From contig OZ242382.1 of assembly GCA_965209235.1 (NCBI GenBank), positions 490,403 through 554,402 on the forward strand: 64,000 nt of DNA, in the 5' to 3' direction. The stretch comes from Gammaproteobacteria bacterium. Its GTDB lineage: Bacteria > Pseudomonadota > Gammaproteobacteria > G965209235. A program made the position numbers and the translations under genes. How positions within the stretch are numbered: position 1 is the stretch's first letter; each line of letters opens with the position of its first letter. The notes beneath the pieces are model-generated. The model made no database searches. It was not told the origin of the DNA and was given only the letters and a program-made list of their open reading frames with translations. This document shows positions 17,215-22,760 of this stretch, one piece after another.

Positions 17215-17304
17215 GGAGAGGTGGCTGAGTGGTCGAAAGCGCTCGCCTGCTAAGTGAGTGTGGGAGAAATCCCACCGAGGGTTCGAATCCCTCCCTCTCC
17301 GCCA
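17215..17304 (+). tRNA. tRNA-Ser (anticodon GCU), class II with long variable arm
   Basis: Manual fold: acceptor GGAGAGG/CCTCTCC plus G and CCA; anticodon stem CTCGC/GTGAG with loop CTGCTAA; T-arm GGTTCGAATCC. Confidence 0.9.
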
Positions 17305-17420
17305 AGTGATCACATATTCAACAACCACACCCCCTCGCTGACACGCTCGATGGTAGCGCGCACGTACCCTTGCACACTGCGAGATAAACTTGCGGTTACG
17401 CCATCAGATGCACGGTCGCC

Positions 17421-18323
17421 TTGGAGCACTTCGTCGCCAGAATCTCACTGGAATCTCTCGAACGATTTCTTGAAACGATTGAAGGTAACTTTCTCATATA
17501 CCTCACCGCGGCTCTCTTCTTGCTCGAACTCGTGCGTTATGGAGTCAAGAAACGACTGAGCGCCAGCCTGATTGGTGATAGCTTGGCCAACGGTGTGACC
17601 TTTATGGTTTTTGGCGTGATCACGTATTTCGTGATCGGAGCGTTTTATGTCTCAGGTTACTACTGGGCGTGGTCCATTGCCCCCTATTGGCTTGACATCA
17701 CCCCTCTCTCTATCATTGCATGCGTAGTGCTTGCTGACCTTTGCTACTACTGCGAACACCGATTTACCCATCGCGTGAATGTCGCTTGGGCAACTCATAG
17801 TGTCCACCACTCTTCACCACACTTCAATCTCTCGGTGGCGTACAGATTTGGACCGATGGATGCCTTCTGGCCGTTCTTTTTTCATGTACCGCTGGTACTG
17901 ATGGGATTTGACCCTATCTTGGTCCTCGTCTCCGAAGCTGTCGTGCAGGCCTATCAGACATGGCTTCATACCGAGGCCATCGGAAAGTTACCGCGGCCGG
18001 TGGAGTTAGTGATGAACACGCCGTCGCATCATCGCGTGCATCACGCGCGGAATCCGCAGTACATCGATAAAAACTATGGTGGTATCTTCATCATCTGGGA
18101 CAGACTCTTCGGCTCTTTCGCGAAAGAGGGAACTGAGGTTGACTATGGGCTTGTGAAGTCCATTCATAGCATCAATCCCGTGAAAATCATGTCTCATGGA
18201 TTTTCTCAGCTAGCTTATGCGTTCGTACGTGCGCAGGGCATTCGAAAACTGAGGTTGCTAATTGGCCCTCCAAGGATGATCACCGACGTGCCTGATCGGC
18301 AGGATTCCATATCAACACAGTGA
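17421..18323 (+). CDS. Fatty acid hydroxylase superfamily / sterol desaturase family integral membrane protein
   Basis: The His boxes HRFTH, HSVHHSS and HHRVHH sit within TM segments. GC is lower (~50%) than the core genes. Confidence 0.8.
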   Translation: MEHFVARISLESLERFLETIEGNFLIYLTAALFLLELVRYGVKKRLSASLIGDSLANGVTFMVFGVITYFVIGAFYVSGYYWAWSIAPYWLDITPLSIIACVVLADLCYYCEHRFTHRVNVAWATHSVHHSSPHFNLSVAYRFGPMDAFWPFFFHVPLVLMGFDPILVLVSEAVVQAYQTWLHTEAIGKLPRPVELVMNTPSHHRVHHARNPQYIDKNYGGIFIIWDRLFGSFAKEGTEVDYGLVKSIHSINPVKIMSHGFSQLAYAFVRAQGIRKLRLLIGPPRMITDVPDRQDSISTQ

Positions 18324-19214
18324 CTTGTGTTCGGGATGCACTCCTGCCTTGAGACGTCGGTGATCCGGTTACAAATCTGTAAGGGAAACGCATAAATGTA
18401 TCGAGATAGTGTGCATCTGCTCACTCCCGGTGCCACCAATTGACTGAAATTAACGCTTGTGCCAGTTATTGGATGTGACCACCAAGTCAGAGCGTGAAGC
18501 GGGTTGTGAATCCCCAAGTTGAATGACTTCCACGCCAAAACCAAAATACGATGTCGAGGCATCCGTGCGGGCATTGCGCCACTCTCAGGCTTGACGAAGT
18601 TCGTCATGTATCTGCTTGTCCACCCAAACCACAACGGATGCATTGAATCCAATGTGTCCGTCAACAGTTTTCCGAGGTGATCATGATCCGTCCGCTCAAG
18701 TTGATGCTCGATGATGACAACGTGTTCCATACCCGCTGCTCTGGCGAAAATGGCCAAAGAGATATCATCGACCGGCTGCTCTGTTTCGATGAGTTCGAGA
18801 TCCACCCCAAAACTACGGGGTGCAGTCAAAGGCCAAGTTTGCCCAGATCGCCCGAAGGTCAACTTTGGCGATCGTTCCAAGCTCGCTCACACTCAAGTCA
18901 GCATACTTGGCATGCGGTTATCGACAAACTCCTCACCCGGTGAAGATATCGACACGATCTCCTTGAGCTATAGCACTCTCGGGTATTGCTCGCTCAGGAC
19001 AGTGCAGCAGGCTCCCGCTGTCTTGCCGGCCAAAGTACAAACGCGAGTGCTCCAGCAAATTCAGCATCTCCTGATGGAGACTCTGCCTTCGTTGAGTGTG
19101 TCATGCGCGAGAGTCCGCAGCTGATGTTTCTCAGATGTACCTATGACGGGAGTGGCGGAAGAGCCTCACAATGGGTCGGTCTTATGAACGCCAAACAAGC
19201 ACCTACCAGACCTC

Positions 19215-20821: not shown

Positions 20822-22060
20822 ATGTGGCTTAAACGCAAGTTAGACCAGTTACGCCACCAGCGACCGGCTGACATTGGATATCGGTTGTGCGTATGTGGCA
20901 TTCTGGTACTTGGATCTTTAACCATGACCATCCATAGTTCAACACAGCCGTCTCTTGCGAGCCAAGCTCACGCAGACGGGTTCCTATATCTCTCGATTGC
21001 GACCAATATCCTTGAAGGTCATGGCGCGACAGCCTCCGGCAATGGCTCGACAGATACTTCTCTCCGCCATCTCAACCGTTGGCCGGTTGGATACCCGTTA
21101 CTCGTCGCTGCGATCGCGGGAGCCACAGGCACGTCTACACTGGCTGCAGCCAAGATCCTTGGTGCCGTTGCGCTGTGCCTCGCCGGCGGTATATTGATTT
21201 TCGCGCTCGGACGCACAACACCTTGGGTTGCGCTGACGTTACTGATGTACTCCAGTGTGTTTGCATTCTCCAAGGCCGGTACCGAAGGCGTACTTGTGAC
21301 CGCGCTGATTCTTGTAGCCTTCTTGACCTGTAAGACACTGCATAGATCGGGACGCCAACTTCATTTTGCGCTCGCGATGCTTGGCGTATCCATTTATATC
21401 GCATTCCTACTGCGGTATCACGGTGCGTTCGCACTGTGCACTCTGTTGTTCCCATTCATCGAGGCACTGCGAGATCGACGGCACATCGACGCCATTGCCA
21501 CCGTCGCCGTTGGGTTCGTTGTCCTCTTGGCAATGGTTAGTTATTGGGCTGTTGCATCCTTGTTCGGCAGCTCTACCGGTCACCCTGAACAGACAGCCGT
21601 CTTGATTGATGTGGATTTTCAATACATCCCCCAAATGTCTCAACAGGTCATCAACATTATTCGCCAGCAGACGATGATCCTCCCATGGCAGCCCTGGGCA
21701 AGAGCTCAATGGCTGACCTTGGCTATTCCACTCTTTGGCCTCTCACTTTCCAGCATATGGCAATGGAAACGCGGCGAGACGCCGACAGCATTCTTCCCTT
21801 TGACCAATCTTGGAAACATCTTGGTTTTTCTGGCAGGCTGCTATATCGTGAGCATAGTGTTCGCAAGTTCCGTTCTGCACTTCGACGCACTCAATTACCG
21901 CTTAATGATGCCAGCATCCTGTCTGCTGATGCTCGGCGTCTTGACTTGGTGCGCACGCAGTTCGCGATGGTTAGCTATCTTCGCTGGATGGCTCGCCGTC
22001 TCCATGGCTGGCCTGACATCTTACTGGGCCGCTGTGGAGTCAATTGCCTTTACTGGCTAA
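20822..22060 (+). CDS. GT-C fold glycosyltransferase (ArnT/PMT family 39/83-like)
   Basis: The N-terminal first-loop motif DGFLYLSIATNILEGHG matches the D..Y...A...G pattern of PMT_2/ArnT-like enzymes. It is followed by multiple TM helices. Confidence 0.6.
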   Translation: MWLKRKLDQLRHQRPADIGYRLCVCGILVLGSLTMTIHSSTQPSLASQAHADGFLYLSIATNILEGHGATASGNGSTDTSLRHLNRWPVGYPLLVAAIAGATGTSTLAAAKILGAVALCLAGGILIFALGRTTPWVALTLLMYSSVFAFSKAGTEGVLVTALILVAFLTCKTLHRSGRQLHFALAMLGVSIYIAFLLRYHGAFALCTLLFPFIEALRDRRHIDAIATVAVGFVVLLAMVSYWAVASLFGSSTGHPEQTAVLIDVDFQYIPQMSQQVINIIRQQTMILPWQPWARAQWLTLAIPLFGLSLSSIWQWKRGETPTAFFPLTNLGNILVFLAGCYIVSIVFASSVLHFDALNYRLMMPASCLLMLGVLTWCARSSRWLAIFAGWLAVSMAGLTSYWAAVESIAFTG

Positions 22061-22379
22061 CTTGATGATGACGCTGACTAACCAGAGGAACCGGCGGGTC
22101 TGTTGACGCATGAATGCGCACGGGAAGCAAGAGTAGTGACTCGAAAGCCTCCTAGAGTTGAAACGGCTCACTTAGACAGGTAGGCGTCTTTCATCCATGT
22201 GTAGAAGGAGTTTGGATGAATTGCCACTGCCTGACTTGCTTCTCTTCTTGCAAACGAATCATCGTGGCCCACAAAAGAACGGTATCGCTCCCGGAGAGTT
22301 CCTTAAGCATGTCGTCAGCTGAGCGAGGGAAAATGTCCGGAAATCGCCGATGACGTATCGGGAAGAATGTCGATACAGG

Positions 22380-22721
22380 AAGTGTGTGGCTTTGGAGCCA
22401 CTGGGGAGCGGTTTACTGCACCATCCGTGTGATTCCTTTCAGGTCCGATATATCCCCAATACCTTTGCGGAACTATCCATCGAAATCAATCAGAAAACGG
22501 GACATACCCTCGTGTTCGCGTTCGAAAAATATCGGTTGATGGCAAGATCTGGATCGCATCCTTCACCTCAACCCCATCTGGCACGTTACCAATCTGTCCG
22601 TACGAACATAAGTGGTACGGCTGCCTATAAGCAAGGAATGATCACATGCAAATAATCTCGGATCACCCAGTGATTGGCCCGCCCACAGTGCCTGAACAGG
22701 AGCATATTGGCGCTCGGTCAT
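22380..22721 (-). pseudogene. Degenerate remnant of a GT32 (DXD) glycosyltransferase paralog
   Basis: The minus-strand translation gives MTERQYAPVQALWAGQSLGD, then after a frameshift EIICM*SFLAYRQPYHLCSYGQIGNVPDGVEVKDAIQILPSTDIFRTRTRGYVPFSD*FRW. This is collinear with the N-terminal 150 aa of the intact paralogs at 23784..24716 and 24769..25680, but carries two in-frame TGA codons and at least one frameshift. Confidence 0.7.
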
Positions 22722-22760
22722 AGCCATACCAATCACCGGCGATGATGTCGCAAACGGACA

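Follow-up and report, generated by a model that had tools for sequence, protein, structure and literature searches.

A compositionally deviant envelope-gene neighborhood beside tRNA-Ser(GCU) in a small gammaproteobacterial genome is probably long resident and partly decaying, with no demonstrable integrative island

Is a block of genes with deviant composition that sits directly beside a tRNA gene a genomic island, or can it be a long-standing part of its genome? This question is raised by a locus next to tRNA-Ser(GCU) in a small, very divergent, Gram-negative, gammaproteobacteria-like genome that consists of one contig of 1,473,301 bp (OZ242382.1, assembly GCA_965209235.1). We analyzed a stretch of 64,000 nucleotides of this contig (positions 490,403 to 554,402, here called the window; all coordinates are positions in it), in which an initial annotation had interpreted the lower-GC genes following the tRNA as a tRNA-targeted island. 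Our results favor, with a probability of about 0.6, a different reading: the region of 17.3-25.8 kb, together with two pyruvyltransferase-family genes (PPT2 and PPT3) at 29.4-31.7 kb, is a long-resident, lineage-specific and partly decaying envelope-modifying neighborhood, located at the breakpoint of a conserved gene block and under weaker constraint than the core genes, in which no integrative island can be demonstrated. The features of the locus and of its borders are listed below.

13289-15910: alaS, overlapped by the start of lysC.
15907-17211: lysC, with its stop 3 nt before tRNA-Ser.
17215-17304, + strand: tRNA-Ser(GCU), CCA encoded (ARAGORN; Rfam 61.9 bits).
17421-18323, + strand: protein of 300 amino acids (aa) of the FA_hydroxylase / sterol-desaturase superfamily (PF04116), here called the hydroxylase.
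18324-19214, strandless: non-coding stretch of 891 bp, GC 0.521, the largest intergenic stretch in the window.
19215-20756, + strand: MP513, an open reading frame (ORF) of 513 aa with multiple transmembrane (TM) segments, predicted to be a degenerate paralog of a GT-C family (hhalign, hmmsearch, hydropathy).
20822-22060, + strand: GTC412, a candidate membrane glycosyltransferase of GT-C fold, 412 aa (AlphaFold2, AF2, model and Foldseek).
22174-22712, - strand: GT32 pseudogene, third paralog of GT32a and GT32b (tblastn with GT32b; six-frame reading).
22761-23771, - strand: PPT1, soluble protein of the polysaccharide-pyruvyl-transferase family (PF04230 56.6 bits, cutoff 25.3).
23784-24716, - strand: GT32a, soluble DXD GT-A glycosyltransferase of the GT32 type (PF04488 30.2 bits, cutoff 23; PF04572 26.5 bits, cutoff 22.3).
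24769-25680, - strand: GT32b, paralog of GT32a with 41% identity (PF04572 23.5 bits, cutoff 22.3).
25920-29355: core E1alpha/E1beta/E2 2-oxoacid dehydrogenase operon.
29363-30463, - strand: PPT2, paralog of PPT1 beyond the dehydrogenase operon (PF04230 62.5 bits; 53% identity to PPT1 by tblastn).
30535-31707, - strand: PPT3, paralog of PPT1 and PPT2, with topA next to it (PF04230 52.7 bits).

The compositional deviation that gave rise to the question is real. GC lies between 0.49 and 0.54 across 17.4-19.4 kb, and at four-fold degenerate sites the GC content (GC4) is 0.590 in the eight glycan and lipid genes and 0.676 in 35 other genes, a modest deviation for which the 64-kb window is the only reference. 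An intermediate GC4 of 0.643 was obtained for the dehydrogenase operon plus topA (members 0.60-0.68). The GC content of third codon positions (GC3) also differs between the eight genes and the others (Mann-Whitney p = 1e-4), and in synonymous codon usage the eight genes showed a distance of 0.189, larger than that of all 500 random sets of eight genes (maximum 0.153). When tetranucleotide and dinucleotide signature distances were calculated, 17.0-26.0 kb took rank 1-2 of 112 sliding 8.5-kb windows. The initial annotation had proposed GC and codon-usage plots as a check, and by GC4, GC3, codon usage and k-mer signature the deviation is significant. Its GC dip at 17.4-19.3 kb was recovered, but the contrast is smaller than it had claimed, since purL and alaS, which had been placed at ~63% GC, measure 59.8% and 58.6%. 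The right-hand limit that it had set at 22760 turned out to be arbitrary, as the anomaly runs on through PPT1, GT32a and GT32b to ~25.8 kb.

The paralogs of the locus provide the evidence about its age. PPT1, PPT2 and PPT3 were monophyletic in 300/300 neighbor-joining bootstraps. The four-fold sites of the PPT genes are saturated, with identical third bases at a frequency of 0.20-0.36 in conserved codons versus 0.27 expected, and the same applies to GT32a and GT32b (0.27 versus 0.26 expected). According to these comparisons, the PPT and GT32 duplications appear to be old and internal to this lineage. Long residence is suggested because the three PPTs are monophyletic, their four-fold sites are saturated, GT32a and GT32b share only the 41% identity given above, and GTC412 and MP513 can barely be aligned with each other. 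Since synonymous sites are saturated in lineage-internal paralogs, the present GC4 would reflect forces acting now and not the composition of a donor. Within the PPT family, GC4 is 0.572 in PPT1, the neighbor of the pseudogene, versus 0.637 in PPT3 and 0.670 in PPT2, the latter being core-like, so that paralogs of one family differ despite their common ancestry.

The remaining values form a gradient. The non-coding and pseudogene DNA (0.51-0.52) occupies its low end, followed by MP513 (0.544, the lowest GC4 of all genes), GTC412 (0.561) and PPT1, then by GT32a/b (0.59) and the hydroxylase (0.592), and finally by the core genes; GC4 thus climbs with apparent constraint. Relaxed selection or low expression under AT-biased mutation pressure would account for the lower GC. 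Local decay is real, because the window has its two largest non-coding stretches here (891 bp and 700 bp), and together they hold 44% of its intergenic DNA. In the history that we propose, the gene families would have expanded by internal duplication and would now be undergoing pruning, to which a pseudogene, a degenerate paralog and two dead stretches bear witness.

The border with the tRNA was compared with the corresponding region of other genomes. The tRNA-Ser(GCU) initially noted at 17215-17304 was confirmed with ARAGORN and Rfam, and lysC ends at 17211. A LysC profile search of reference genomes yielded at least 80 loci, all of them 31-36% identical to the LysC of the window. tRNA-Ser(GCU) was present after lysC in 18/19 gamma- and betaproteobacterial loci examined, and in 13 of these 19 loci tRNA-Arg(ACG) comes next. 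In 15/18 relatives' loci csrA (MLILTRR...) is located between lysC and the tRNA, where the spacer measures 0.36-0.81 kb; the spacer in the window is 3 nt, and no CsrA-like motif was found anywhere in the 64 kb. tRNA-Ser is the sole tRNA of the window, as no tRNA-Arg(ACG) or any other tRNA was detected in the 46 kb downstream (ARAGORN, Rfam). From an ancestral-type order alaS-lysC-(csrA)-tRNA-Ser-(tRNA-Arg), the window therefore retains alaS-lysC-tRNA-Ser, without csrA and tRNA-Arg. Because these two genes are gone and the 46 kb downstream are filled by core genes (the 2-oxoacid dehydrogenase operon, topA, a pyrB/argF-like gene, ribE, pdxJ, pst and phoBR), the junction between tRNA-Ser and the hydroxylase gene marks the point at which a conserved block was broken and is no insertion whose far end could be recovered.

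Among the 80 loci listed in the LysC search, none carried genes of the block within 10 kb of lysC, a result that the distance of these relatives makes uninformative; we rejected it as evidence either way because their LysC proteins are only 31-36% identical to that of the window. The best LysC homolog among 5.8 billion proteins reached 36-37% identity, and the best AlaS match 46%. At the tRNA itself, Rfam also reported Plastid-psbl-rps4 at 17250-17301 on the - strand (45 bits versus a gathering threshold of 68), exactly antisense to the 3' half of tRNA-Ser; this match is most likely an artefact of tRNA-like sequence in that model.

Hallmarks of mobility were absent. The Pfam scans took in ~47 ORFs, that is, the whole 64-kb window, and detected no integrase, recombinase or transposase (Phage_integrase, rve and DDE domains); a six-frame Pfam search of the gap at 18.3-19.4 kb revealed no integrase, recombinase or insertion sequence (IS) remnant. 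The 3' end of the tRNA is not repeated in the window, either as a 25-mer with <=3 mismatches, as a 20-mer with <=5 mismatches or as a shared 12-mer. No direct or inverted repeats were found at the boundaries, the repeat finder having returned only the PPT paralogs and short chance matches, and no decayed tRNA or member of another Rfam family was recognized in the gaps (E<=1). The lack of an integrase, a tRNA 3' repeat and an IS, already remarked on in the initial annotation, thus holds across 64 kb, which leaves nothing positive for its tRNA-targeted island besides position and composition.

The alternative that survives best is nonetheless an ancient tRNA-Ser-targeted island of ~17.3-25.8 kb whose integrase, attachment (att) sites and mobility genes were lost during genome reduction, with PPT2 and PPT3 as later duplicates that moved out; we hold this to be somewhat unlikely. 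Such an island would explain that the block begins 117 nt past tRNA-Ser(GCU), that is, directly 3' of the tRNA gene, where relatives normally continue with tRNA-Arg, and that, among the 8.5-kb stretches of the window, this one deviates most in GC4, codon usage, tetranucleotides and dinucleotides. The gene content is of accessory type, the pseudogene and the two long non-coding stretches could be the graves of lost genes, and members of the PPT family are widely distributed among unrelated marine microbes and in large viruses. However, not even the six-frame search of 18.3-19.4 kb recovered an integrase, recombinase or IS remnant, and relaxed stringency brought up no tRNA 3' repeat. In addition, the saturated synonymous sites of the paralogs indicate that a donor signature should have been erased, and there is no close donor for any gene, the best outside matches being 29-52% identical.

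The comparison with tRNA-associated integrative islands, such as Pseudomonas PAGI and the islands of the integrative and conjugative element (ICE) type at tRNA-Lys and tRNA-Gly, points in both directions. The locus resembles them in its position 3' of a tRNA, its deviant composition and its accessory, surface-related genes, but it is without an integrase, an att direct repeat, conjugation or IS genes, or an identifiable far boundary, and its gene families reach past a core operon. PPT2 and PPT3 lie on the far side of the dehydrogenase operon, so the cluster is not one contiguous foreign block. The best outside identities are 52% for the hydroxylase, 46-50% for the PPTs and 29% for GTC412, versus 46% for AlaS and 36-37% for LysC; judged by these values, the genes of the block do not have nearer outside homologs than the core genes do. 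We also considered the whole block as a transferable cassette and rejected this, since no GT-C family member or hydroxylase accompanied the PPT homologs in the 28 loci from genomes or metagenomes and the 17 viral ones, and a GT32-like gene did so only occasionally. The particular assemblage of genes found here is lineage-specific.

The soluble part of this neighborhood consists of the PPT and GT32 proteins, none of which (PPT1-3, GT32a/b) showed TM or hydrophobic segments in hydropathy analysis. PPT1-3 score 52.7-62.5 bits against PF04230 (cutoff 25.3), which places them in the family and predicts pyruvyl transfer. They belong to a distinct subfamily in which a variable, basic stretch of 60-110 aa extends the N terminus, and they have no solved-structure relative detectable by sequence. 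In GT32a and GT32b the DXD motif VDTDV is intact in the alignment; on PF04488, GT32b obtained 21.7 bits, under the cutoff of 23. The best solved-structure match of the pair is Legionella SetA, a weak profile match (E 2e-3) limited to the generic GT-A DXD region. The GT32 pseudogene, which the initial annotation had recognized, matches GT32b aa 17-103 and 205-302 in different frames with 48-67% identity (tblastn). It contains frameshifts and in-frame stops (FSD*FRW), its central DXD region is deleted or destroyed, and it sits in the 700-bp non-coding stretch, whose GC is 0.507.

A profile search with the three PPTs of the window retrieved 1,474 homologs, the best outside matches being 41-50% identical. 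Fusions of PPT with GT32 (PF04230 + PF04488 + PF05704) account for at least 8 of the top 120 homologs, one of them in a metagenome-assembled genome (MAG) of Pelagibacteraceae, and other PPT homologs are fused to GT8, GT25 or methyltransferase domains. Taken as Rosetta-stone evidence, the fusions predict a shared product on which both PPT and GT32 act. Enzymes of PF04230 such as CsaB, WcaK, EpsO and S. pombe Pvg1 pair with a glycosyltransferase, and PPT1-3 are alike in their family and fusions. The sister of the three PPTs is a tandem triplet on a 2.18-Mb circular contig of 44% GC (L084/L085, ERZ25069786 ctg50796), a relationship supported in only 145/300 bootstraps. This triplet is flanked by GT2 genes and five genes of ~380-390 aa with no Pfam match, four of them in tandem; we evaluated these five as possible members of the GT-C family of GTC412 and rejected them, as they are not members.

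Further PPT homologs came from other sources. In IMG/VR viral contigs of 38-167 kb (L116-L132) they are 41-49% identical, and in giant-virus MAGs 28-33%; the patterns used detected no relatives of GT32a/b in the viral collection. In some very AT-rich marine contigs (P0292; L090, L091, L093, L094 and L098) the PPT domain is split, its N-terminal ~150 and C-terminal ~60 residues being ~1 kb apart, and in P0292 the insert in the pyruvyltransferase fold encodes a GT8 domain.

The membrane part of the neighborhood is represented by GTC412 and MP513. GTC412 carries DGFLYLSIATNILEGHG. It gave no Pfam match (E<=0.1) and no NCBIfam match, and a word-indexed protein search returned only the protein itself. 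An exhaustive HMMER search of 1.84 billion representatives detected 199 remote homologs at <=29% identity, mostly of 390-530 aa. The signature of this family, derived from a 50-sequence alignment, comprises D..YL..A..L..G.G, WP.GYP, K, (W)SE, RY.G, Y..N...G..TG..R.P..E and YR...P, of which GTC412 retains D52/Y56/L57/A60, W87-P-x-G-Y-P, K111, E155, R198-Y-x-G, Y341, R360 and P364. GTC412 is a short form without the C-terminal domain, and short forms of ~390-400 aa occur elsewhere in the family.

A single-sequence AF2 model of GTC412 was unusable (pLDDT 48), and the model built from 50 homologs was used instead (pLDDT 79.6, pTM 0.83). In a Foldseek comparison of this model with the PDB, the top 18 matches were all GT-C enzymes (Pmt4, AftA, ArnT, PglB, AglB, STT3, EmbA/B/C and ALG9), with TMq values of 0.36-0.53 and a probability of 1.0, versus TMq 0.1-0.2 for unrelated transporters and other non-GT-C proteins. 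The GT-C fold of GTC412 is therefore confirmed at the level of the predicted fold. In the predicted model D52, which 98% of 49 homologs share, is found where the first loop helix begins; MP513 has no residue equivalent to it.

The initial annotation had called this protein an ArnT/PMT-like GT-C glycosyltransferase. Its GT-C part is borne out by the AF2 model and Foldseek, but membership of the ArnT/PMT sequence families is not: the 50-sequence profile finds no PDB sequence at E<=10, no Pfam or NCBIfam model matches the protein, and PMT_2 is matched by only 1/50 family members. GTC412 shares with the class GT-C_A enzymes ArnT (GT83), PMT (GT39), PglB/STT3 (GT66) and EmbA-C/AftA (GT53/GT85) the multi-TM architecture and the predicted fold, and its long first extracytoplasmic loop opens with the D52 motif D..YL..A..L..G.G, resembling the N-terminal motif of PMT_2/ArnT. 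Unlike most family members and most characterized GT-C enzymes, it is without a C-terminal periplasmic domain.

MP513 is, as first described, a multi-TM protein with a soluble C-terminal domain; hydropathy places its hydrophobic part at aa 64-394, and the last ~120 aa are hydrophilic. Its alignment with the GT-C family (aa 123-502) obtained an hhalign probability of 97.5% (E 8e-12), and the C-terminal soluble domain matches positions 346-466 of the family hidden Markov model (HMM) in hmmsearch. GTC412 keeps 25 and MP513 11 of the 39 columns conserved in >=80% of homologs. The loop-1 Asp motif, WP.GYP, RY.G and YR...P have been lost from MP513, and its ORF is intact. These profile matches indicate that GTC412 and MP513 are tandem paralogs of one Pfam-orphan GT-C family, of which MP513 would be a degenerate member. 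The 513-aa ORF, read from a GTG at 19215, was absent from the protein collection, where its neighbors are present, and its start is uncertain (region 19215-19580). The deposited annotation probably uses a later start, in which case the upstream gap may be nearer 1.0-1.1 kb.

The closest homolog of the GT-C family (P0125) belongs to a polysaccharide locus of the Wzx/Wzy type that also holds GT2, GT4, Bac_transf, Wzy_C and Polysacc_synt genes; a second one adjoins an Acyl_transf_3 gene, and a third is found in an unrelated context. The family is single-copy in 5/5 homolog loci examined, which makes the tandem pair a peculiarity of this genome. Yeast Pmt1-Pmt2 (6p25) and mycobacterial EmbA-EmbB (7bvf), which we take to be heteromeric pairs of GT-C paralogs, are both among the PDB entries matched by Foldseek, and the two genes described here are likewise paralogous, adjacent and co-oriented. 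MP513 differs from those proteins in that it is without the loop-1 acidic motif and 28 of the 39 conserved columns. It is conceivable, and we think quite doubtful, that GTC412 and MP513 form a heteromeric single enzyme, with the catalytic Asp motif on one subunit and the C-terminal periplasmic domain on the other, which decorates a surface glycan pyruvylated by the GT32 and PPT proteins. If true, this would represent a subfunctionalized version of the Pmt1-Pmt2 or EmbA-EmbB arrangement after tandem duplication.

The first gene after the tRNA was correctly assigned to the His-box fatty-acid-hydroxylase/sterol-desaturase family, since its product scores 99.9 bits against PF04116 (cutoff 31, E 1.9e-28). 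The His boxes EHRFTH, HSVHH and HHRVHH, which correspond to the HX3H, HX2HH and HX2HH boxes of the superfamily, are intact in its translation, and as a membrane di-iron hydroxylase it probably has a membrane lipid as substrate. Compared with the ornithine-lipid hydroxylase OlsE, it belongs to the same superfamily and keeps the His motif, but its score against the OlsE model (NF052566) is 60.9 bits, far under the equivalog cutoff of 475. Its closest homolog in the plasmid and chromid collection is an unannotated gene of Vibrio sp. THAF190c (52% identity over 94% of the length), whose neighbors are a two-component system and an ABC/HlyD pair and not genes of glycan synthesis; we saw no sign of a functional tie between the hydroxylase and the glycan genes. 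Downstream of the hydroxylase gene, the ~900-bp stretch without a recognizable gene corresponds to the 891 bp at 18324-19214. Mechanical ORFs of 88-221 aa do occur in it, and it produced no Pfam match in six frames, no Rfam match at E<=1 and no match to the HMM of the GT-C family. The suggestion that 18.3-19.2 kb is a remnant region is thus unproven, no homology having been found.

If the locus is a long-resident envelope-modifying neighborhood, its products could work as follows. By family analogy, the GT32 DXD transferases would add a hexose to a lipid-linked or lipopolysaccharide-linked glycan on the cytoplasmic side, and the pyruvyltransferase-family enzymes would place a pyruvate ketal from phosphoenolpyruvate on that GT32-added sugar. 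GTC412, again by analogy, would work on the periplasmic side and transfer another sugar from a polyprenyl-phosphate donor, with MP513 as a non-catalytic partner or on its way out, and the hydroxylase would act separately on a membrane lipid. We infer the substrates, the donors, the membrane side of action and the cause of the GC dip from such analogies.

Several observations weigh against this reading. The dinucleotide relative-abundance distance delta* is 0.067-0.069 at 17.0-26.0 kb versus a median of 0.033, and on its left the compositional anomaly begins exactly at the 3' side of a tRNA gene, the classic position of an island. The match of the hydroxylase to Vibrio (52%) is somewhat above the best matches of core proteins. 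PPT homologs of 41-50% identity are found in AT-rich marine contigs (23-27% GC) and in large IMG/VR viral contigs, and the PPT subfamily is clearly widespread and probably horizontally mobile over long timescales. With regard to function, GTC412 is without the loop motif Y..N...G..TG..R.P..E of its family and may, given that this conserved motif is missing, be inactive, and the Pfam scans found no gene for a GT2-type polyprenyl-phosphate-sugar synthase in the window. Finally, relaxed selection as the cause of the GC gradient is itself an inference, made in a window with no highly expressed reference genes.

A second alternative is that the soluble GT32 and PPT paralogs are secreted effectors that glycosylate host targets, like Legionella SetA, and that their expansion and decay represent host-driven turnover. 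SetA is the best solved-structure match of the GT32 pair, the small size and strong divergence of the genome are reminiscent of host-associated bacteria, the families are expanded to a degree unusual at 1.47 Mb, and the proteins are without a TM segment or a signal-like hydrophobic N-terminus. Nevertheless, we consider an effector role very unlikely, given that the SetA match is weak and confined to the generic GT-A DXD core, that PPT+GT32 fusions occur in free-living marine bacteria (the Pelagibacteraceae MAG), that co-location with a GT-C membrane enzyme fits envelope glycan synthesis, and that the window contains no secretion-system gene. That the GC dip is only a by-product of amino-acid composition (membrane proteins with low GC at second codon positions, GC2) and of included non-coding DNA is very improbable and largely refuted: the hydroxylase (0.385), the PPTs (0.41) and GT32b (0.40) do have a low GC2, and the stretch includes ~1.6 kb of non-coding DNA at 0.51-0.52 GC, but the gap persists at four-fold sites (0.590 versus 0.676), which are independent of amino acids, and the codon-usage distance is 0.189 against a random maximum of 0.153 in 500 sets.

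Elsewhere in the window, three co-directional overlapping ORFs of 847, 399 and 738 aa are located on the - strand at 5318-11270, between a NUDIX gene and purL. Their GC is core-like (0.57-0.61), they gave no Pfam match at E<=0.001, and the trio looks like an uncharacterized operon. A full-length angiotensin-converting-enzyme-type peptidase (Peptidase_M2, E 3e-213) is encoded at 35733-37670 on the - strand, and the gene of an alkyl-sulfatase-like metallo-beta-lactamase at 34444-35733 follows it; both are unusual in a genome of 1.47 Mb. The window also contains a porin gene and the pst/phoBR genes. A scan for promoters and terminators yielded no excess over shuffled controls.

Nothing in these results overturns current understanding. 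Through a confident model, they assign the GT-C fold to a Pfam-orphan membrane family with ~200 detectable homologs, of which some belong to Wzx/Wzy loci. The PPT fusions with GT32, GT8 and GT25 predict a coupled step in which a sugar is added and then pyruvylated, and this prediction is testable. The locus illustrates that a compositionally deviant block beside a tRNA is not automatically a genomic island: where a genome is reduced and evolves fast, accessory genes under relaxed selection can imitate a foreign signature, and saturated paralogs internal to the lineage offer a means to tell one from the other.

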